DNA of 64,000 nucleotides from Myxococcota bacterium (GTDB lineage Bacteria > Myxococcota_A > UBA796 > CAJQPC01). Below the pieces are notes generated by a model. It was not told where the DNA came from, did no database searches, and saw only the letters and a program-made list of their open reading frames with translations. This document shows positions 27,751 through 38,060 of the stretch, piece by piece. The first letter of the stretch is position 1. Every line of letters begins with the position of its first letter. The position numbers and the translations under genes were made by a program. The stretch spans positions 32,001 to 96,000 of the forward strand of contig DASCPX010000059.1 in the NCBI GenBank assembly GCA_036012755.1. Reading direction: 5' to 3'.

Positions 27751-28578
27751 ATGCTGCGATGGGGCCTCATCGGAGCGGGCCGCGCAGGCAGGGCCCGTAC
27801 AAAAGCGATCCTCCACGACCCACGCTCGAGGCTGATCGGCGCCTTCGGGGGAGACCCCGAGACCCTTGGTGTGGGGGTGATGCCCAGCCTGGAGGTGCTG
27901 TTCGACTCGGTCGACGCGGTGGCCATCTGCACCCCCGACGTGAGCCACGCCGCCCTCGCCCGCACTGCCCTGGTCGCCGGAATGCACGTGCTCGTCGAGT
28001 ACCCCCTGGCCGGGTCTCGAGAGGTCGCGGCCACGCTGTTGGAGTTCGCTGCTTCCAGGAGTCGGGTGCTCCACGTGGAACACATCGAGCTCCTGAGCGC
28101 CACCCACCTCGTCTTCGCCAGGCACCTGCAGGGCGCCTCGGTGCTCGGCGGCCACGTGCGCTTCACGGGGCCGCCGAGACAGGGCCTCCTCAGCGTCGCC
28201 CACGCCAACGTCGCCCGGCTCCACCGGGTGGTCGACGCCATCGGGCTCCCCGACTCGATCGAAGGCTCCACCACCGGCGGCCTCGTCGAGGGATCGCTCG
28301 GCTACGGCGCCGCGGGCGTGAGCCTGCGCTTCGAGCTCGGCGAGGATCTGCCTCGCCGAACCGACATGCTGATCGAGACCACCAGCGGCAAGGTCAGGCT
28401 CGAGGGCAAGGAAGTGCTGGTGGACGGGGTGGTCAGCCAGCTCGACGAGCAGCCGGGGCTGTTCGCCAGCGACCAGCGTCGCGCGACCGCCCGCATCCTG
28501 GATGGCGGCCCGTCTTATGTGTCCGACTCCCGGGTGCTCGATGTCCTTGGACTTGCGGATGCGCTTTCCAGCACTTAG
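27751..28578 (+). CDS. Gfo/Idh/MocA oxidoreductase (biliverdin-reductase-like)
   Basis: GAGRAG, ICTP...H, HVLVEYPLA, LHVEHIELL. Confidence 0.85.
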   Translation: MLRWGLIGAGRAGRARTKAILHDPRSRLIGAFGGDPETLGVGVMPSLEVLFDSVDAVAICTPDVSHAALARTALVAGMHVLVEYPLAGSREVAATLLEFAASRSRVLHVEHIELLSATHLVFARHLQGASVLGGHVRFTGPPRQGLLSVAHANVARLHRVVDAIGLPDSIEGSTTGGLVEGSLGYGAAGVSLRFELGEDLPRRTDMLIETTSGKVRLEGKEVLVDGVVSQLDEQPGLFASDQRRATARILDGGPSYVSDSRVLDVLGLADALSST

Positions 28579-28604
28579 AGCGTCGCCTTCTTTGACGTTC
28601 AGCC

Positions 28605-28763
28605 CTGCAGGTGTCCCACGTCGTGGGATGAAACGGGAAGTCGGTGAGAGACCGACACGGCCCCCGCCACTGTGACCGGGTACGCCCTCCGCGATTGCCA
28701 CCCCTGATGAGGGGGAAGGCGCGACGGGGCGGATGATCCGGGAGTCAGGAGACCGGCCTGTAG
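28605..28763 (+). ncRNA. Cobalamin (AdoCbl) riboswitch
   Basis: AGGT...AAACGGGAAGTCGGTGAGAGACCGACACGGCCCCCGCCACTGTGA...GCCAC...GGGAAGGC...GAGTCAGGAGACCGGCCT; ends pair (CTGCAGGT/GCCTGTAG); lies before a TonB receptor. Confidence 0.93.
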
Positions 28764-28796
28764 CAGCTCGACCAGCCTTTCGGGAGGAAAGGCGGC

Positions 28797-30797
28797 TTGC
28801 TCTACATCCTTGCCACCAGCGCCATCGCCGAAGACGAGACCACCATCGTGGTCGAGGACGAGGCCGTGCGTCAGACGCAGGTGCTCGAGACCTCGGCCAG
28901 CGTGACCGTGCTCGAGGTCGACCAGACGGTCGCGGCCAGCACGGACGTCGCTGGCCTCGTCGAGAGCGCCACGGGGACGACGGTGGTGCGGCTGGGCGGC
29001 CTCGGGGACTGGTCCGGAGTGAGCATCCGCGGCTCCACGGCTCGGCAGGTACAGGTCCACCTCGACGGCATCCCACTGAATCCCGACGGGGCCTCGACGG
29101 TGAACCTCTCGGAGCTGCCACTGCAGGCCTTCGAGCAGGTGGAGGTCTGGCGAGGGAACGCGCCCCCGCAGTTCGGGGCGGCGCCGATCGGCGGGGTCGT
29201 GAACCTCGTGACCGGGACTCCGGATGATGGCGAGCTGCACGGCGCCGCCGGCTCCTTCGGCACATGGAAGCTCGGCGGCCTGGTCGCCGCACCGCTCGGA
29301 GACGAGGTCGACGGCCTGTTCATGGCGGACACCTTCAGGACGCGCGGTGACTTCGACTACTTCGCGGACAACGCCACCCTCTACAACACCTGGGACGACA
29401 GCTGGAAGGTCCGCGAGAACAACACGACGGACCAGGCCAGCCTGCATGGCCGGCTGTCCTTCGACACACCGCTGGGCGAGGTCGACATCGTCGAGGCCTG
29501 GCTCGCCCGGGACGAGGGCGTGCCCGGTCACGTCAACGCCGAGGCTGCGGCCACCTCGCTCGAGACCAGGCGCAGCCTGACGGCCCTTGGGCTGGAACAC
29601 CGAGGAAACGGCTGGCAGATCGACACCCGGGCCTGGGGCAGCCACCGTCGCGAGCTTTGGGCCGATCTCGACGGCGAGGTCGGCACCGGCGGCCAGCTGG
29701 GGCTGACCCGACTCAGCAGCCTGGGTGTGTTGGCCAGCGGTCGCTACGGCCTCCGTCTCTGGCTGGTCCCGGGCGTCACGGTCAGCGGGCGTGTCGACCA
29801 CCACCGCAGCGAGGACCGCCTCGCTGACCTGGAGAGCGAGGCCAGCCGCCGCCTGCACCTCGACGGGGCGCTCCACGCCGATGTCCTGCTCTGGGGCGAG
29901 CGCCTGACCATCTCGCCGGTGCTCGCGGGTCTGTGGCTCGACAACCGCGCCCTCGGCACCGTGCCCTTCGAGGACACCCCCGTGGCTCCGGCGGGGGAGG
30001 ACACCCTGCTCACGGCCACACCGCGCATCGGAGTGTTGCTGCGGCCTCTCCCCAGCCTCGCCTTGAAGGCCAACGCCGGGCGCTACGTCCGGCCCCCCGA
30101 CTTCACCGAGCTCTTCGGTGACCGCGGCACCATCATCGGCAACACCGAGCTGGTGCCGGAGACAGGTCTGCACTGGGATGTCGGGGGCCGCGTCGAGCAC
30201 GACGGGGAGCAGCTCGGCGTCGCCTTGGACCTCGGCCACTACTGGCTCTGGTCGAAGGACCGCATCGTCCTGCTCCAGAACAGCCAGCGCACCAGCGTGC
30301 CGAGGAACCTCGGCGAGGCCTGGATCCAGGGGGTCGAGGCGGCGCTGTCCCTGGAGATCGTCGGCGTCGTCGACTCCCGCTCGGCCGTGACGCGGAACGT
30401 CAGCGTCAACATGGTCCGGACCAGGGCCTACGCGGGCAACCAGCTGCCGCGTGTTCCGACCTGGGAGATCTCCCAGTCCACCTCGCTGCACTGGGAGGAG
30501 CGCGTCCGGGCTGGCCACACCTGGTCCTACACGGCGGGCAACTACTGGGACGCCACGAACTGGCACCTGGCGCCGCCGCGAAACCTGCACAGCGTCTTCC
30601 TGCGCGTCCAGCCCACACCGGCCTGGCCCTCTGCGGAGCTCAGCGTGCTCAACCTCTTCGACAGAACGGTCGAGGTCGTCCCACGCAACGTCCTCGACGA
30701 GACCGACACCTCGCGCATCGTTTCACCAATCACCAACTTCGTCGGATACCCGCTGCCCGGTCGCACGCTGCTCTTCAGCCTGCGCTGGGCTCTCTGA
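28797..30797 (+). CDS. btuB: TonB-dependent receptor, probably for cobalamin
   Basis: Plug motifs SIRGS...LDGIPLN, VEVWRG...GGVVNL; C-terminal YPLPGR; riboswitch upstream. Confidence 0.85.
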   Translation: MLYILATSAIAEDETTIVVEDEAVRQTQVLETSASVTVLEVDQTVAASTDVAGLVESATGTTVVRLGGLGDWSGVSIRGSTARQVQVHLDGIPLNPDGASTVNLSELPLQAFEQVEVWRGNAPPQFGAAPIGGVVNLVTGTPDDGELHGAAGSFGTWKLGGLVAAPLGDEVDGLFMADTFRTRGDFDYFADNATLYNTWDDSWKVRENNTTDQASLHGRLSFDTPLGEVDIVEAWLARDEGVPGHVNAEAAATSLETRRSLTALGLEHRGNGWQIDTRAWGSHRRELWADLDGEVGTGGQLGLTRLSSLGVLASGRYGLRLWLVPGVTVSGRVDHHRSEDRLADLESEASRRLHLDGALHADVLLWGERLTISPVLAGLWLDNRALGTVPFEDTPVAPAGEDTLLTATPRIGVLLRPLPSLALKANAGRYVRPPDFTELFGDRGTIIGNTELVPETGLHWDVGGRVEHDGEQLGVALDLGHYWLWSKDRIVLLQNSQRTSVPRNLGEAWIQGVEAALSLEIVGVVDSRSAVTRNVSVNMVRTRAYAGNQLPRVPTWEISQSTSLHWEERVRAGHTWSYTAGNYWDATNWHLAPPRNLHSVFLRVQPTPAWPSAELSVLNLFDRTVEVVPRNVLDETDTSRIVSPITNFVGYPLPGRTLLFSLRWAL

Positions 30798-30807
30798 GGA
30801 GACCACC

Positions 30808-31911
30808 ATGACCATCCTGACCCTCGCGTTGTCACTCGGCTGTCCGCCGAGCCCCACCCCCGACTCCAGCCTGGAGGCCGACACCGACGCCGACACGGAC
30901 GCCGACACCGACACCGACACCGACGCCGACACGGACTCGGACACCGACACCGACCCACAAGGCCAGACCACGGCCTACTTGACGACTTCTGACTTCTCTG
31001 TCGGAGCTCTGGCGGTAGTGAACCTCGAAGACGGCACCTTCGACGAGCCGACGGACATCGCCGCTGACGCCTCGGTGCACGTCGAGGACGGCCACGTCTA
31101 CGTGATCGGGCGCCTGGGCTTCGACTACGTGCGGCGGTACCTTCCCGGCAGCTGGGACGCTCCGGTCTCCGAGTTCTCTGTCGGCACCAACCCCAACGAC
31201 CTCGAGATCTGCGACAGCAAGACCTTCGTGAGCCACTACGGCGAGACCTGGATCGGCATCTACGACGACGACGGCACCCTCACCGGGACCGTCGATCTCT
31301 CGACCTATGGCGACTCCGACACGATCGGGCCAGAGGCCTCGAACCTCGCGGAGGTCGCCGGCACGCTCTACGTGGTCCTCCAGCGCCTCAATCGTGACGG
31401 CGGCTGGGTCACGGAGGGCTCCAAGGTCGTCGAGATAGACTGCGCCAGCGAGTCGATCACCGGGGACTGGGACGTCGGCGGAAACGCGCAGCTCTGGCAG
31501 GCTCCCACGGGCGAGCTCTACGTCACCCACGAGGCCTGGGACACCACTCCGGCGGGGCTCTCCAAGCTCGATCCGGGTGGAGACGGCTTCACGACCGTCG
31601 TCGAATTCACCGACGGCAACCCCGTGGGCATCGCCGTCAGCCAGGACGGCACCACCGGCCTGATGAACATCACGAACTCGAGCTACCAGTACGGCGTGCA
31701 GTGTGTCGACCTGGGCGACGGCAGCACCACCGAAGCCGAGTGGCTCGACTACGGCTACATGGTGGGCATCGGCGGAAACGACAGGGACGAGGCCTTCATG
31801 GGCGGTCACTACGGCGCCGCCAACGGAGTCGTGGTCTACGACATCGCGAGCTGCGCCCAGACCTCGGTCATCGGCACCACCTTGCCTGGCACCTCGGTCG
31901 TCTTCGACTGA
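30808..31911 (+). CDS. YncE/BtuG-like beta-propeller lipoprotein with (DX)n linker
   Basis: LSLGC lipobox; DT/DA repeat; NPNDLE, LYVVLQRL propeller motifs. Confidence 0.75.
   Translation: MTILTLALSLGCPPSPTPDSSLEADTDADTDADTDTDTDADTDSDTDTDPQGQTTAYLTTSDFSVGALAVVNLEDGTFDEPTDIAADASVHVEDGHVYVIGRLGFDYVRRYLPGSWDAPVSEFSVGTNPNDLEICDSKTFVSHYGETWIGIYDDDGTLTGTVDLSTYGDSDTIGPEASNLAEVAGTLYVVLQRLNRDGGWVTEGSKVVEIDCASESITGDWDVGGNAQLWQAPTGELYVTHEAWDTTPAGLSKLDPGGDGFTTVVEFTDGNPVGIAVSQDGTTGLMNITNSSYQYGVQCVDLGDGSTTEAEWLDYGYMVGIGGNDRDEAFMGGHYGAANGVVVYDIASCAQTSVIGTTLPGTSVVFD
30877..30954 (+). repeat. Coding low-complexity (D-T/A/S)n repeat
   Basis: Tandem GACACC/GACGCC hexamers encoding ADTDADTDADTDTD... Confidence 0.9.
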
Positions 31912-32237
31912 TGTTGTTGTTCCTCGCCGCTTGCGCCGTCGAGGCTCCCAAGGCCTGCGACCCCATGTGCTCCTCTGCCGCCGAGCTCTACGGCGGCTGC
32001 TTGGAGGACTGGGGCGTGGGCTGGGAGGCCGCCGGCTACGACGACGAGGACGACTTCCTCGGCTCATGCTCGACCTGGGCCTGGGAGATGCAGGTGCTCG
32101 AGGACGACGCCGTCGAGCGAGGCGAGGCCACCGGCGGAGAGGTTGCCGCGATCTGCGCCGAGCGTCGCGCGTTGTTCGAGTCGGAAGACGCGACCTGCCA
32201 GACCTACACGGACCTGGAGTGGGGGGCCCCGTGGTGA
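31911..32237 (+). CDS. Small Cys/Trp-rich acidic lipoprotein
   Basis: MLLFLAAC; six further Cys; TGATG overlaps at both ends. Confidence 0.75.
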   Translation: MLLFLAACAVEAPKACDPMCSSAAELYGGCLEDWGVGWEAAGYDDEDDFLGSCSTWAWEMQVLEDDAVERGEATGGEVAAICAERRALFESEDATCQTYTDLEWGAPW

Positions 32238-33724
32238 TGCTCGTCTTGCTGGGCTGCGGGACCCCTGAGGTCGAGGGGGACTTCGTCTTCCTCCGCGACG
32301 CCATCTTCGTCGACGGCGAGGTCGTCCCCACCAGCTGGAGCCCAGGCCAGCAGCTCGAGCACGAGGGCCGCGTGGCGACGGCACCCCACCGCGCCGAGTG
32401 CATCACGCTGTTCGGCGTGGGGCTCGGCGACGTCTCGCGGGAGGTGGCGATGGGGCTCCCCGCACCCGACACCGCCCTGGCGTTTTCACCAGACGGCTCC
32501 TTGCTCGCCGTGGGCTCCTACCGGGGCGAGGTGCTCGTGCTGGACGGCTGGACCGGCGAGGTCGTCGCGGACAAGCAGCTCTCCGAGACCATGGTGAAGT
32601 TCGTCGCCTGGAGCGCCGACGGCCAGACCCTCTACGCCGCGGAGCAGTCCCCCGACGCCTTCGTGCACGCCTTCGATCCCAGGACCCTGGAGGTGCGCTG
32701 GAGCTTCCGCGTCGCCGACGAGGTCGAGAGCTCTCCGCTCCCACCCGCAGAGGAGAAGTACGGGGTCTACGATCTCCCGGCGGCCTTTGGCATGGCGGCG
32801 CTGCATGACGGCGGCCTCGTGATGACCGCGATGCACGGCTGGAACACCCCCGAGGGGCGTCGCAACGCCTCCAGGGTGCTGCGTCTCGACGCTGACGGGA
32901 AGCTCGTCGACGCCTGGCCGGAAGCGGGGGTCGCCGACGCCACCTTCAAGCACCCCCGGGTGGACCTCGAGGGGGACCGCATCGTCTTCGCCGTCCATCG
33001 CACGGCGAGCGGAGAAGCCCCGACGGACCTGCCCATCGGCGGAATCCAGGTGCTGTCGCTCTCTGGGCTGGAGCCCGTGGTCTCGGTCATCGCCCCGGCG
33101 CTGGAGCCCTGGTACGACACGCCCTTCGTCTGGGAGGCCCTGGATGTCGACGGCGACGCGGTCTTCATGGGTTTTGGTGACGGGCGCGTCCTGCTCTTCG
33201 GCCAGGACGGCACCGAGCGGCTCGCGCTGACCCCGGGCACGCCGATCCTCTCTGGCGAGGTCCCCATCGCGGCGAGCGTCGGCTACGGCCAGTTCGCCGG
33301 GGACTTGCTGATCTTCCAGACGAGCACGACCCTGATCCCCTGGGGCGCCGCCTCGCCGGAGCTGCGGCCTCCGAGCACCCACCCCCGCGAGAACGCGCTG
33401 TGGGTCCACGACCTCGACGGCGAGCTATCCTGGACCTGGACCGGCGAGCAGGAGCTGGCGGGCCTCACGGTCCTTGGCGACACCCTCGTCGCGGGCGCCG
33501 GCCCCCGGAGCTCGGACAGCCGGGCGGATCTCTACGGGGCGCTGATCTTCGAGCTCTCCGGCGAGGGCTCGGGAGACGAGCGCCTCCGCGCCTTCTGCCC
33601 CACAGAGGGCCCCGCCTTCTTCCGGCAGACCCTCACAGAGGACGGACGCGTCGCGGTGACCGAGTTCCCCTACGCCGATGAAGGCGGCCAACACGGCACC
33701 TATCGGGTGACCGTGCTCCGCTGA
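32237..33724 (+). CDS. WD40/PQQ-like beta-propeller lipoprotein
   Basis: MLVLLGC; LAFSPDGSLLAVGS, VAWSADGQTLYA repeats. Confidence 0.8.
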   Translation: MLVLLGCGTPEVEGDFVFLRDAIFVDGEVVPTSWSPGQQLEHEGRVATAPHRAECITLFGVGLGDVSREVAMGLPAPDTALAFSPDGSLLAVGSYRGEVLVLDGWTGEVVADKQLSETMVKFVAWSADGQTLYAAEQSPDAFVHAFDPRTLEVRWSFRVADEVESSPLPPAEEKYGVYDLPAAFGMAALHDGGLVMTAMHGWNTPEGRRNASRVLRLDADGKLVDAWPEAGVADATFKHPRVDLEGDRIVFAVHRTASGEAPTDLPIGGIQVLSLSGLEPVVSVIAPALEPWYDTPFVWEALDVDGDAVFMGFGDGRVLLFGQDGTERLALTPGTPILSGEVPIAASVGYGQFAGDLLIFQTSTTLIPWGAASPELRPPSTHPRENALWVHDLDGELSWTWTGEQELAGLTVLGDTLVAGAGPRSSDSRADLYGALIFELSGEGSGDERLRAFCPTEGPAFFRQTLTEDGRVAVTEFPYADEGGQHGTYRVTVLR

Positions 33725-35452
33725 GTGCTGGCCCTCCTGCTGGCCTGTGCCGCCGAGCGTATCGAGCCCGAGGTGCGGGTCGACCTTGGCGGCGTCGAGG
33801 TGGTCGGGAGGGACATCGAGCGCGTCGAGGTGGTCGATCCCCAGGGCGTGCCCCTCGCCGCCCAGCGGGCCCCAGCGGCGCTGGAGCAGATGCGGGTCAG
33901 CGTCCCGTGGCAGGAGGGCGGGACCCACGAGGTGATCGTCCGAGACGAGGCCGGGACGCACTCGATCGAAGTCGAACTCCCTCACGAGCGGCCCGTCTAC
34001 ACCATCGAGGTCCAGGCCCCGCTCGGCCAGGCCCAGGTCGAGGTCGGCGACGGCGAGGTCATCAGCGTGCCGCTGATCGGCGGGCGCCCGGCAGAGGTCG
34101 GCGTCTTCGCCCGAGCCTGGGAAGAGGTCGTCATCGAGACCCGCTTCGGTGGCGAGGACCCCGAGACCCACGACCTGCGACCGGGGGAGCGAGCGGTGTT
34201 GGTGCGAGCCCTGACCGAGGAGGTCGAGGTCGTCGTGGGAGAGGTCGGCTTCGTCCTGGAGCCGACGCACAGCTCGGTGGAAGACGCCGCCGCGCTGCTC
34301 CACGTCGAAGAGGTCGTCTTCCCAGCAGAACCCAGCGGTCACGCGGATCCGGCGAGGGTCCGCGACCGGGTGGCGCTGCCCTCTCACTGGTGGCGCTCGG
34401 TGCTGAGGTCTACGGGCCTGGGTTTCCGGCCTCGGGACGAGTTCGCCGTCTACGCCTGGCAGGCGGTCCACCTGCGAAACGACGGCGAGGACGCCATCAA
34501 CGTCGTGCTCGAGGCCCGCGTCGTGGACGAAGAGGGCGACTACGCACCGGCCTTCAGGCCTCGCATGAGGGCGGGGGACGATGGCAGCGGGCGAGTCCGG
34601 GCGCTGATGCGGGTGCCCCCGGGCTCCAGCGCCGTCGGCACACTCCCGCTCTACGTCGACGAGGATCTGCTGGGCATGGACGAGGTGCGCTCCAAGAGCT
34701 GGACCGCCGAGATCGCCGTCATCCCCCTGGGCGCGAGCGAGGCCGTCACGGTCCACCGGCGACCGATCCACGCCTCTCGAGGCTCCTCGACCGCCTCGCT
34801 GGGCCTGCTCGCCGCGCTGGTGGCCGCCGTGCTCGGCACCGGCCTGCTGGTCACCCGCGGACGCCGATGGCTCCAGGACTTCCAGACCTCCGAGCTCATG
34901 ACCATCGCGCTCTTCGGGGCGCTCTCGTTCCTGGTGGGCGCCGCTGGACGCTTGCTCAGCACCGGAGTGGCCACGCTGCTGGGGCCTTTTTCGCCCTTCC
35001 TCACCGGCCTCGTCGACGACGCCTTCCGCTACACGCTCATCGCCACGCTCCTGGTGTTGCTGCCGCGGGTCGGGGTGGCCTCTCTGGCCGTGATCGTGAG
35101 CTGGATGCTGTCGGGGCTGATGCTCGGCACCTTCCAGGTGACGGACCTGTTGTTCGTCGGCGGTCGGGTCTTCTGGCTCGAGGGCTTCCTGTGGCTGGCT
35201 GGCATCACCCGCCAGAGCGGCTGGCTGGACGAGGTCCCTTGGAGGCGATGGCTGCGCCTGAGCTTCGGGCTCGGGCTGGCCTCTGCCTTCACCAGCGCCA
35301 CCGGCGTGGTGCTGATGGTGACGCTGTATCGGCTCTTCCTGGCGGACTGGTTCGTCATCGCGCTGGTCTCCGGCCCCGGCTTCCTCTACGTGGTCCTCGC
35401 CTGCCTGATCGCCGTGCCCTTCGCGGACTCCCTGCGGAGGATCCAGCGGTGA
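33725..35452 (+). CDS. ECF S-component-like protein fused to a large N-terminal lipoprotein ectodomain
   Basis: MLALLLAC; about 350 aa beta-rich region; then a TM and an S-like domain beginning ELMTIALFGAL; adjacent to ecfA/ecfT. Confidence 0.7.
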   Translation: MLALLLACAAERIEPEVRVDLGGVEVVGRDIERVEVVDPQGVPLAAQRAPAALEQMRVSVPWQEGGTHEVIVRDEAGTHSIEVELPHERPVYTIEVQAPLGQAQVEVGDGEVISVPLIGGRPAEVGVFARAWEEVVIETRFGGEDPETHDLRPGERAVLVRALTEEVEVVVGEVGFVLEPTHSSVEDAAALLHVEEVVFPAEPSGHADPARVRDRVALPSHWWRSVLRSTGLGFRPRDEFAVYAWQAVHLRNDGEDAINVVLEARVVDEEGDYAPAFRPRMRAGDDGSGRVRALMRVPPGSSAVGTLPLYVDEDLLGMDEVRSKSWTAEIAVIPLGASEAVTVHRRPIHASRGSSTASLGLLAALVAAVLGTGLLVTRGRRWLQDFQTSELMTIALFGALSFLVGAAGRLLSTGVATLLGPFSPFLTGLVDDAFRYTLIATLLVLLPRVGVASLAVIVSWMLSGLMLGTFQVTDLLFVGGRVFWLEGFLWLAGITRQSGWLDEVPWRRWLRLSFGLGLASAFTSATGVVLMVTLYRLFLADWFVIALVSGPGFLYVVLACLIAVPFADSLRRIQR

Positions 35453-36714
35453 TCGAGCTCGCCGGCGCCGGCTACCGCTACCCATCGGGTCCCCTGGGCA
35501 TCGAGGACGTCGATCTGCAGGTCGCCGCCGGGGAGATCGTGCTGTTGACCGGGCCGACGGGCTGCGGCAAGAGCACCCTGTTGCGCCTGGCCGCCGGGCT
35601 CCTTCAGCGCCACGGGCAGGGCGAGGTCCAGGGCGAGGTCCTCGTCGATGGCCGCGACCCCGCGGGGCTGTCGCCCTCCGAGCGCGTGCGGCTGCTGGGC
35701 TTCGTCGCCCAGGAGCCCGGGGATCAGCTCGTCGCGGGCACCGTCGGGGACGAGCTCGCCTTCGCGATGGAGTCGGCCGGCTTCGGAGCCGAGGCCATGG
35801 GCCAGCAGCTGCCGGAGCTGTTGCGGACCATCGGCCTGCACATCGGGCTGGAGCGCTCCACCGCGGCGCTCTCCGGTGGCCAGACCCAGCGGCTGGTCGT
35901 GGGCGCCACCCTGGCCGCTGGCGCCAGGGCGCTGTTGCTCGACGAGCCCATCGCACAGCTGGACCCGGAGGGCGCCCAGGCGCTGCTCGGACGCCTGCGG
36001 GCGCTGGCCGACTCGGGACTCGCGGTGCTCTTGGTCGAGCACCGCATCGACACTGTGCTGCCCTTCGTGGACCGGGTGGCGACCATGGCAGCCGGTCGGG
36101 TGGTGTCAGCAGAGGAGGCGGCGATCTACCAGGCGCCGCCTCGGTCCTCGGCTCGCCTGCCCGTGACCGAGCCAGGGGAGCTCTTGTTCTCTGCGAGGGA
36201 CCTGTGCCACGACTACGACGGCATCGAGGCCCTGCGTGGCGTGGACTTCGAGCTGCGCGCCAACGAGCGCGTCGCCCTGGTGGGGCCCAACGGGGCCGGC
36301 AAGAGCACGCTGTTGTCGAAGCTCCCGGGGCTGATGGTGCCCCAGGATCCCGACCTGGCGCTGTTCTGCGGCACCGTCCGCAGGGAGCTGGCCTATGGGC
36401 CGCGGGAGAGGGGGAGTGAGCTCGGCGTCGTCGAGGACACCGCCGAGAAGCTGGGCCTCTCGGAGCTGCTGGATCGGGCGCCCCAGGCGCTCTCGCGCGG
36501 ACAGCGGCTTCGCTGCGCGGTGGCCGCAGCGCTCACCTGCGAGCCCAGGGTGCTGCTGCTCGACGAGCCGACCAGCGGACAGGACCAGGTCCAGGTCGAG
36601 CACATGATGTCCGCCCTCGGAGACGTGACGCTGGTCTTCGCGACCCACGACCTCGATCTGGCCAGGCGGCACGCGACCCGGACGGTGCGGCTGGTCGACG
36701 GGCGGGTGGCCTGA
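35449..36714 (+). CDS. ECF tandem (fused A-A') ATPase
   Basis: GPTGCGKS/LSGGQ/LLLDEP and GPNGAGKS/LSRGQ/LLLDEPT; ECF-type Q-loops. Confidence 0.9.
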   Translation: MIELAGAGYRYPSGPLGIEDVDLQVAAGEIVLLTGPTGCGKSTLLRLAAGLLQRHGQGEVQGEVLVDGRDPAGLSPSERVRLLGFVAQEPGDQLVAGTVGDELAFAMESAGFGAEAMGQQLPELLRTIGLHIGLERSTAALSGGQTQRLVVGATLAAGARALLLDEPIAQLDPEGAQALLGRLRALADSGLAVLLVEHRIDTVLPFVDRVATMAAGRVVSAEEAAIYQAPPRSSARLPVTEPGELLFSARDLCHDYDGIEALRGVDFELRANERVALVGPNGAGKSTLLSKLPGLMVPQDPDLALFCGTVRRELAYGPRERGSELGVVEDTAEKLGLSELLDRAPQALSRGQRLRCAVAAALTCEPRVLLLDEPTSGQDQVQVEHMMSALGDVTLVFATHDLDLARRHATRTVRLVDGRVA

Positions 36715-37514
36715 TGGACCCGCGGACCCGCATCGTGCTGATCCTCTGCGCTGGAGTGGCGGCGATCTCGCTGGAGAGCCCCCAGGCCCTGAGCGCGCTG
36801 ACGCTTGTGTGCGCGCTGTCGCTGGTGGCGCTGAGGGTGTCCTGGTCCTGGTGGCGCCGGGGTCTCCTCCTCGTCGTAGCCCTGCTGTGGGGGACGGCGC
36901 TGTCCCAGGGCCTCTTCTACTCGGAGCAGCCAAGGGTGGCGCTTGTCCACCTGGGCCCCCTGGTGCTCTGGCGAGAGGGGGTGACCTGGGGCCTGGCCCA
37001 GTCACTCCGCTTCATCGCCGTGGCGCTGGCTGGCATCGCGCTGGCGGTCTCTACCCCCCCGGATCGACTCTTCGCCGCCCTCCAGCGCATGCGCGTGCCC
37101 TTCGGGCTGGCCCTGATGGCCTCTACGGCGCTGCGGCTGTTGCCGCGAATCGCCAGCGAGGTCCTCACCGTTCGCAAGGCACGAGCGGCCAGGGGACGCC
37201 CGGTCTGGAAGCGCTCGCCGTGGGCGTGGCTGGTCCTCGAGGTCTCCTTGATGCGGCCGGTGGTTGCCCGCTCCTGGAGGCGAGCCCAAGTGCTGGCAGA
37301 GGCCCTCGACTCCCGGGGATTCGACCCCGTCGCCCCCCGCGCGGTGCGCAAACCCCTCCGCTTCGGTGTCTTGGACTACATGCTGCTGCTGTCGGGTCCT
37401 GGCATCGCGCTGGCGGTCGCGGGCTCGCGCGTCGCCTACCTTCTGTATACGAGCGAGACCCTGTACATCCAAGCGCTGCGGCCGCTATACGGCTTTGTCC
37501 GCGCATACCTGTGA
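36714..37514 (+). CDS. ECF T component (CbiQ/EcfT)
   Basis: MDPRT start; ALRLLP; ARG and SRG coupling motifs. Confidence 0.9.
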   Translation: MDPRTRIVLILCAGVAAISLESPQALSALTLVCALSLVALRVSWSWWRRGLLLVVALLWGTALSQGLFYSEQPRVALVHLGPLVLWREGVTWGLAQSLRFIAVALAGIALAVSTPPDRLFAALQRMRVPFGLALMASTALRLLPRIASEVLTVRKARAARGRPVWKRSPWAWLVLEVSLMRPVVARSWRRAQVLAEALDSRGFDPVAPRAVRKPLRFGVLDYMLLLSGPGIALAVAGSRVAYLLYTSETLYIQALRPLYGFVRAYL

Positions 37515-37523
37515 GGTTCTAGA

Positions 37524-37985
37524 GTGCTGCTTCTCATCGCCCTGGCCCAAGGCGCCGACAAGGCCGAGTACGACAGGGAATACGGGACCCGTACCCTGAA
37601 CCCGAGCGAACTCGCGGCGGTGAACCGCTGCCTCGTCGCCTGAGGGGACCACCCCTTCGCCGAGTTGGCCTCCGAGGAGGTCCGCGTCATCGAGACCAAC
37701 GTCCGCGTGATGGGCTTCGGCGGCACGGAGCCCCGCGACGAGCTCCAGACCGATCTCACGACCAGCTCGTGCTGATCGGGCCGGCGATCTCCGCGGTCAC
37801 GCGGACGACCTACGAGCTCCAGAACCCAAACGGCTGGTACTGCTTCCACACGACGACCACGGTGCTCGGGCAGAACCGCATCAACCTCGCCTGCGGTGCG
37901 CAGCTCGCGAACTCGCGTGACGGGGTGGCGGTCTCGGGGGTCTCGGCGAGGGCGAGGCTGGCCAACAACAGGGTCACGGACCCAC
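37524..37985 (+). pseudogene. Disrupted secreted hypothetical protein (TGA at 37641, frameshift near 37755, unclear 3' end)
   Basis: MLLLIALAQG...CLVA*GDHPF, continuing in another frame as LVLIGPAIS...NPNGWYC. Confidence 0.6.
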
Positions 37986-38060
37986 CATACGTTCGGGAGG
38001 GCCGGCTTCATGCAGTCCCGCGATCATGCTGTCTGCGTGACGCTCGGATAGTGCGAAGAG

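Follow-up and report, generated by a model that had tools for sequence, protein, structure and literature searches.

We analyzed a 64,000-nucleotide stretch of the genome of a Myxococcota bacterium (GCA_036012755.1, contig DASCPX010000059.1, positions 32,001 to 96,000 of the forward strand), hereafter the window, in which a cobalamin riboswitch precedes seven closely spaced genes on the plus strand. A first-pass annotation had read this locus as a hybrid two-membrane corrinoid uptake operon, in which a TonB-dependent receptor and a relay of three lipoproteins hand substrate to an energy-coupling factor (ECF) transporter instead of BtuCDF. A search with Infernal and the Rfam covariance model RF00174 recovered the aptamer at 28592..28776 (+) with a cmscan score of 124.1 bits (E 1e-30) over a cut-off of 31.5, covering the full model (positions 1-189); the proposed riboswitch is confirmed by this match, which moves its start from 28605 to 28592, and a genome-wide scan identified it as the sole cobalamin riboswitch of the genome. 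The seven genes occupy 28797-30797, 30808-31911, 31911-32237, 32237-33724, 33725-35452, 35449-36714 and 36714-37514, and their junctions comprise one 10-nt gap, one abutting pair and four stop/start overlaps, in keeping with the tight coupling noted previously. The third-position GC content is 0.87-0.92 across all seven. Pfam recognized a TonB plug and barrel, a WD40-type propeller (under curated cut-offs), two ATP-binding cassette (ABC) domains and CbiQ/EcfT along the operon, and found nothing at E 0.1 for genes 2, 3 and 5. A search for a sigma-70-like promoter of the operon found none, and the five terminator-like sites were all intragenic, with none 3' of EcfT.

The minimum free energy fold contains a hairpin at 28775..28793 (+), whose loop and 3' arm include the Shine-Dalgarno-like sequence that precedes the receptor gene. 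Translational control by cobalamin riboswitches through a kissing loop has been described (PMC7689651), and the Shine-Dalgarno-like sequence inside this hairpin fits such control. The hairpin is a probable translational expression platform, for which a C-rich loop near 28661-28666 would be the kissing-loop partner. Of 11 related loci that were folded, several have a comparable G-rich-loop hairpin 3' of the aptamer.

The first three genes appear to form an outer-membrane cassette. The receptor (28797..30797, +; 666 residues, TTG start, PF07715 E 5e-16, PF00593 E 7.5e-25) is present in single copy and probably plays a BtuB-like role. The second gene (30808..31911, +) encodes an acidic beta-propeller lipoprotein of 367 residues with an Asp/Thr linker and no Pfam family match. 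When a profile of 25 homologs was compared with the PDB, 8blw_B came first (E 2.4e-4), and 3dsm, 8bmy, 8bmx, 8p97 and 8okv also matched (E 0.006-0.016); all of these are BtuG structures (PMC10404256), which suggests that the protein is distantly BtuG-like. This propeller gene adjoins the receptor in most receptor loci. The third gene (31911..32237, +) encodes a small acidic lipoprotein of 108 residues which, in an alignment of 23 homologs, has six invariant Cys in addition to the lipobox Cys; it matched no Pfam or NCBIfam model and belongs to no known family, and its profile matches in the PDB, to Rop (a short helical match) and to Frizzled fragments, were judged spurious. Weak "propeller" matches (E 1e-4 to 1e-13) in the loci of relatives were attributed to the Asp/Thr linker and left out of the count. 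In six other loci (L219, L220, L223, L140, L227 and L225), a cobalamin riboswitch precedes a short lipoprotein with an Asp/Thr linker and no Pfam family; from sequence, these are candidates for further B12-binding proteins.

The remaining four genes encode the parts of an inner-membrane module. A lipoprotein of 495 residues (32237..33724, +) is a WD40/PQQ-type beta-propeller, with Pfam propeller matches under curated cut-offs. It is followed by a substrate-binding (S) component fusion of 575 residues (33725..35452, +), a fused A-A' ECF ATPase of 421 residues (35449..36714, +; NCBIfam best ECF_ATPase_2, E 2.4e-67) and an EcfT scaffold of 266 residues (36714..37514, +; PF02361 E 8.8e-24). The ATPase carries Walker A, signature, Walker B and H-loop twice (35/279, 141/348, 162/369 and 197/399), and EcfT, the only one in the genome, has two X-Arg-Gly motifs, ARG at 159 and SRG at 200. 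Judged by these motifs, a predicted fold and its dedicated gene module, the set of WD40, S-fusion, A-A' and EcfT belongs to group I of the ECF transporters.

That predicted fold is that of the S-fusion. Three lipoproteins had been counted at this locus before, and the S-fusion also starts with a lipobox-like Cys (Cys8), kept in 66/69 rows of its alignment, which makes four predicted lipoproteins. Three immunoglobulin-like (Ig-like) domains (~13-86, 90-183 and 186-353), an extra helix (355-385) and a six-helix S-component (388-574) follow, and the AlphaFold2 model built from the 69 sequences, with a mean predicted local distance difference test score (pLDDT) of 91.8, accordingly has three beta-sandwich domains, a helix and a six-helix bundle. 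A single-sequence fold of the membrane domain reached a pLDDT of 47 and was not used. When the model was aligned to 48,161 chains with VIA-align, the top four were ECF S-components: residues 357-575 gave Z 13.8 to 5edl_A, 11.3 to 4hzu_S, 11.0 to RibU and 10.7 to 4m5c_A, and 5x3x was also among the best fold matches. The membrane domain is predicted to adopt a YkoE-like six-helix S-component fold. CbrT and BtuM were absent among the 50 matches listed, which does not exclude likeness to them. Given the orientation that we take to be usual for S-components, the seventh, extra helix would place the Ig-like arm outside. Helix 1 carries an AxxxA motif (A395 and A399), with A, G or S at 395 in 69/69 rows and at 399 in 66/69, and this motif couples S-components to EcfT (PMC11109136).

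By sequence, the S-fusion family is remote from known ones. The protein had no Pfam match, PF09819 included, and PF09819 was matched by 1/60 members of the family (E 0.003) and by 24% of the members of its structure-neighbor cluster in the Atlas. At E 10 the S-domain profile matched no PDB chain, S-profile searches of PDB sequences returned weak Ig matches or nothing, Foldseek, including a second look, gave Ig-type matches only, and single-protein pattern scans yielded no relatives or one self match. The S-fusion profile matches 479 clusters (50% identity) at E 0.001.

To examine the B12 need and supply of the organism, profile searches were run on its genome, which is 95.95% complete. MetH was present over its cut-off, together with three mutase loci and CobS, and MetE was not found. 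There were 26 B12-binding-domain matches, mostly in frames of 430-620 residues, many of which are probably B12-dependent radical SAM enzymes, and 13 TonB_C matches. CbiC, CobN and SbmA/BacA were not found. Since B12-dependent enzymes are present and CbiC and CobN were not found, the organism, as judged from its gene content, is unable to make the corrin ring and must salvage corrinoids. The observation that the operon holds no BtuF/BtuC-like gene extends to the whole genome, in which neither the FecCD/BtuC nor the Peripla_BP_2/BtuF family had a match. Among the families searched, which for the genome did not include BtuM and CbiM, the operon is the only candidate for corrinoid import.

The same gene content bears on whether the module could be a cobalt or nickel importer like CbiMNQO, with the Ig-like arm and the WD40 protein as accessories. 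The extra helix of the S-fusion is covered by the alignments to two seven-helix metal S-components, 4m5c (357-575 with 4m5c_A) and CbiM; cobalt importers can be under B12 riboswitches (PMC7689651); and CobN-type chelatases adjoin distant loci of the module. Set against this, conservation of His, Met or Cys in the S-fusion alignment (69 rows) is confined to the first Met and the lipobox Cys, with none of the membrane-domain Cys conserved, and a genome in which CbiC and CobN were not found would have no use for cobalt. Among relatives, moreover, 36/41 genomes with the S-fusion lack CbiC, and the other five carry a separate FecCD clade, W. We consider cobalt or nickel transport quite improbable.

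We then examined conservation of the neighborhood. The S-fusion was found in 41/61 genomes of relatives, and it was strong in at least 50 of 401 genomes of the phylum, all of them in its own class. In a first set of 40 loci, all seven genes occurred in order in 11, five more reached the contig end after the propeller gene, and the four inner genes were adjacent in 28. Among 20 further loci, six had all seven genes, five missed only the Cys-rich gene, four had the receptor after EcfT, and 19 had the four-gene core. The ECF core is conserved within the class (28/40 and 19/20 loci), and the full order that joins it to the receptor occurred in 17/60, so that this part of the earlier proposal stands for a portion of the loci and not as a universal linkage. 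The riboswitch lies 1.6-5.6 kb upstream of the S gene on the same strand in 14/41 genomes, and likewise in 6/9 further loci scanned. In two genomes (G046 and G047), it directly precedes WD40 and S, and the receptor is missing.

The relatives indicate that the operon is built, as far as gene order and co-occurrence can tell, from two modules: an outer one of receptor, propeller and Cys-rich lipoprotein, and an inner one of WD40 lipoprotein, S-fusion, A-A' and EcfT. The WD40 gene was present in 42/61 genomes, namely all 41 with the S-fusion (in nine of them on another contig) and one more (G001), in which the cassette leaves the contig at WD40. It keeps with the S-component even in an actinobacterial locus that lacks the receptor, and this co-inheritance suggests that the WD40 lipoprotein serves the S-fusion as a dedicated partner. 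The propeller and Cys-rich genes accompany the receptor whichever inner system is used, BtuFCD included, as is evident from three exchanges: riboswitch-receptor-propeller-Cys-BtuF-D-C in G017, receptor-propeller-Cys-C-D-F in G009 and receptor-propeller-D-C in G029. The first-pass idea of a hybrid two-membrane route with an ECF module replacing BtuCDF is well supported by genome content, complementary distribution and these module swaps; its single relay of three lipoproteins is not, as the propeller and Cys-rich proteins travel with the receptor and WD40 with the S-component (41/41).

The distribution of the BtuC-type alternative was followed with a tree of 33 FecCD proteins, from which one short row was left out. 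Four well-supported clades (X, Y, Z and W) were obtained, with the B12-linked members of the swap loci in X and Y. Clades X, Y or Z were present in 17/20 genomes without the S-fusion and in 1/41 with it, and X or Y alone in 12/20 and 1/41; the three genomes without the S-fusion and without X, Y or Z are 73-80% complete. In a second set of 28 genomes unused before, X or Y was present in 7/8 genomes without the S-fusion and in 0/20 with it, and the FecCD protein of G302 was a long, unsupported neighbor of clade Z. Both states occur within each of five families (f1, f2, f3, f5 and f6). A FastTree phylogeny of 45 receptors interleaved BtuC users with ECF-linked receptors, one of the BtuC users (G012) being sister to G005 with support 1.0. 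The receptors of G017, G029 and G055 group apart from these, on a deeper branch, and the whole cassette may therefore have moved together in these genomes. It is the genetics of natural variation that argues for replacement of BtuFCD by the ECF module. Clade W, for its part, was found in exactly the five of 61 genomes that have CbiC (G019, G030, G046, G056 and G058), in three of them on the contig of CbiC. Clade W is likely to be a cobalt importer, and these genomes have probably acquired a synthesis cluster that brings a cobalt ABC importer of its own.

These exchanges also bear on two other explanations. The ECF module might import a precursor of corrinoids or a piece of the lower ligand (of benzimidazole or ribazole type), with intact corrinoids using an unrecognized route. 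The presence of CobS would suit this, as would the nearest fold, a small-vitamin S-component, and the 24% share of PF09819 in the Atlas neighbor cluster. Yet the module replaces BtuFCD behind the same receptor cassette, and the families searched, which did not include BtuM, revealed no further inner-membrane route; we regard this explanation as unlikely, if the least so of the alternatives. Alternatively, two unrelated modules might share one promoter, the ECF part moving another micronutrient. The modules are indeed unlinked in several relatives, and WD40 lies apart from S in nine genomes, but the inner module has its own riboswitch in G046 and G047, and its distribution is nearly exclusive with that of the BtuC clades in two genome sets, which makes chance company very improbable.

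The four-gene module appears to extend beyond its own class, to Desulfatibacillum, a Deferribacteres bin and an actinobacterium. Full-length S-fusion homologs were identified in Desulfatibacillum aliphaticivorans, the Deferribacteres bin and Ca. Oleimmundimicrobium. The actinobacterial locus (L081) has WD40-S-AA'-T beside a two-piece CobN, with neither receptor nor riboswitch, and the module occurs in 1/151 genomes of that phylum. Among metagenomic loci, L207 has the order riboswitch-receptor-ATPase-WD40-S with a receptor of a different type, which scores TonB-hemin (1.6e-68) above TonB-B12 (1.9e-44); in four others (L208, L209, L211 and L212) the module is accompanied by CobN and chelatase ATPases (ChlD/ChlI-type), and L211 additionally has a CbiZ-like gene, TonB, ExbB and ExbD. 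A radical SAM gene is sometimes among the CobN/ChlD/ChlI neighbors of these four and of L081. From their gene content, these five could possibly be loci of corrinoid salvage or metal stripping. The distant loci appear to keep a tetrapyrrole theme, and heme may be an option for these members.

Could the module as a whole then carry heme or another metal tetrapyrrole, with the link to B12 secondary? The CobN/ChlD/ChlI-type neighbors, the hemin preference of the L207 receptor and the missing riboswitch of L081 would agree with this, as would the role of the CobN-like BtuS in heme iron release (PMC10846266). Against it stand riboswitch control in the operon of the window, in G046 and G047 and in L207, the BtuG-like partner, the exchange with riboswitch-linked BtuFCD and the CbiZ-like neighbor in L211. 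A heme substrate may apply to some distant members only; for the module in general we think it highly unlikely. Look-alikes of the WD40 lipoprotein in the Atlas (0.92), in Bacillota and Methanobacteriota, are leads only. The first of the Ig-like domains in the S-fusion profile also finds the N-terminal part of distant WD40 proteins (L204 and L207-L212; E 1e-6 to 1e-8), a part that corresponds to 32237-32410 of the WD40 gene in the window; this suggests that these proteins and the S-fusion have a common stalk domain.

Together, these observations make it probable that the operon is the main corrinoid (B12 and/or cobinamide) import route of this bacterium, with an outer cassette joined to an ECF module that replaces BtuCDF and the WD40 lipoprotein as a substitute for BtuF. 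We favor corrinoid import by the ECF module because of a B12 need without known supply, the S-component fold, the complementary distribution and the module swaps. In the model that we propose, scarcity of coenzyme B12 would free the ribosome site and allow the operon to be translated. The BtuG-like propeller would capture the corrinoid at the receptor, probably helped by the small disulfide-rich lipoprotein, and the receptor would import it using one of the TonB proteins of the genome. In the periplasm, the WD40 lipoprotein would bind the corrinoid in place of BtuF and dock on the Ig-like arm of the S-fusion. The six-helix S-component would accept the substrate and, driven by the A-A' ATPase, topple against EcfT via its AxxxA face, and the extra helix would stay upright meanwhile, keeping the arm outside. 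It is co-inheritance that suggests the roles given here to the WD40 protein, the arm and the Cys-rich protein.

Several points weigh against this interpretation. The receptor fails the BtuB cut-offs (77.9 versus 599.7 bits for TIGR01779 and 75.1 versus 836 bits for NF007926), and its top NCBIfam score is to MxcH (1.5e-29), with TonB-B12 next (6e-22), all far under cut-off; it may still function like BtuB. The likeness of gene 2 to BtuG is weak, with a best E of 2.4e-4 and unrelated propellers (Lp49, YbhE) interleaved among the matches. The closest S fold is 5edl, which we take to be YkoE, a thiamine-type protein, and VIA-align's own note calls a Z near 13 borderline when helical bundles are compared. 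Receptor linkage is not universal, and several genomes carry the modules in separate places: WD40 lies away from S in nine, S lacks adjacent AA' and T in four loci (L033, L048, L056 and L099), contrary to a single fixed operon, and just 14/41 genomes have the riboswitch upstream of S on the same contig, several contigs ending early. As to distribution, the two systems coexist in G003 and are both missing from G044 and G052 (78% and 80% complete), and the loci of clade Z show no link to B12; no p-value is given for the ECF and BtuC counts because related genomes are not independent. Finally, corrinoid as the substrate is deduced from genes, riboswitch, motifs, predicted folds and distribution, and the WD40 lipoprotein as binding protein from co-inheritance.

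Among known systems, the group I transporters YkoEDC and CbiMNQO/NikMNQO likewise have a dedicated, operon-encoded motor, and their folds (5edl, 4m5c and 5x3x) were matched here. The metal S-components CbiM and NikM share with the S-fusion an extra N-terminal helix (here 355-385, for seven in all). They have a free N-terminal Met-His metal-binding motif, whereas in the S-fusion Ig-like domains precede the helix and there is no conserved His column. The S-fusion also differs from these systems in having no PF09819 match, no conserved metal ligands, a large ectodomain and a paired TonB receptor. BtuM has an S-component-like fold. It provides, with BtuB in proteobacteria (PMC6072759), a similar inner-membrane B12 route other than BtuCDF in Gram-negatives that bear BtuB, but it is a solitary protein of ~22 kDa with a conserved Cys ligand and another mechanism, in contrast to the 575 residues, absence of a conserved membrane Cys and full ECF motor found here. 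ECF-CbrT of Lactobacillus delbrueckii (PMC5997447) likewise imports corrinoids through an ECF module and S-component without BtuCDF, and toppling is expected in both; the present operon differs in encoding its own fused A-A' and EcfT, in serving a two-membrane cell, in its co-inherited WD40 lipoprotein and in an S-component with an extra helix and a ~345-residue Ig-like ectodomain. The outer cassette resembles BtuB-BtuG of Bacteroides thetaiotaomicron (PMC10404256): in both, a TonB receptor led by a riboswitch precedes a beta-propeller lipoprotein, and the propeller found here is weakly similar to BtuG1-3 at the profile level. The sequences are very distant, a counterpart of the Cys-rich lipoprotein was not found there, lid formation and surface exposure of the propeller are hypothetical here, and the inner step of Bacteroides is BtuCDF (PMC13398666).

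Full-text literature searches, with subscription papers (including Rodionov 2009) and supplements outside their scope, found no published description of this ECF module, and in the parts of a structure-based survey of S-component fusions that were searched (PMC11109136) the terms "immunoglobulin," "periplasmic" and "extracellular domain" do not occur. We regard the operon as a conserved, undescribed variant of ECF corrinoid import. Many cobalamin-auxotrophic Gram-negatives have BtuB but no BtuCDF (PMC6072759), and missing B12 transporters are an open problem (PMC6593275); the module is a concrete candidate for the missing inner-membrane importer of such auxotrophs. ECF transporters have been described as working without a separate binding protein (PMC7689651), and an S-component whose outside arm spans 345 residues and which has a dedicated propeller partner bears on this idea as well as on toppling. 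The operon adds up to three candidate families of corrinoid-binding proteins and an S-component family missed by Pfam. More tentatively, and at slightly less than even chances, the module may define an ECF subclass of its own. Its S-component would be no free six-helix protein but would be tethered through a lipid anchor, three Ig-like domains and an extra helix, and an obligatory WD40 propeller, as a novel type of corrinoid-binding protein, would feed it substrate, making this an ECF transporter that works with a periplasmic binding protein. The four genes would form a portable unit, exchangeable with BtuFCD behind a BtuB/BtuG-like cassette, and would fill part of the importer gap of B12 auxotrophs.

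Some features of the flanks and of the export signals were also observed. A GFO/IDH/MocA oxidoreductase gene (27751-28578, +) stops 13 nt before the aptamer, leaving little space for a promoter, and was not found in the related loci examined. After EcfT lies a small broken reading frame (37524-38050, +) with a signal-like start, an in-frame stop near 37641 and an apparent frameshift near 37770; a clear homolog is absent in the genome and in the loci examined. The predicted signal peptides of the genes at 31911, 32237 and 33725 are very short, with 6-7 residues before the lipobox-like Cys and no basic N-region; these starts are fixed by stop/start coupling and are the same in many relatives. 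The signal of the receptor (28797) is also only ~11 residues long, and very short export signals are possibly a lineage-wide feature.

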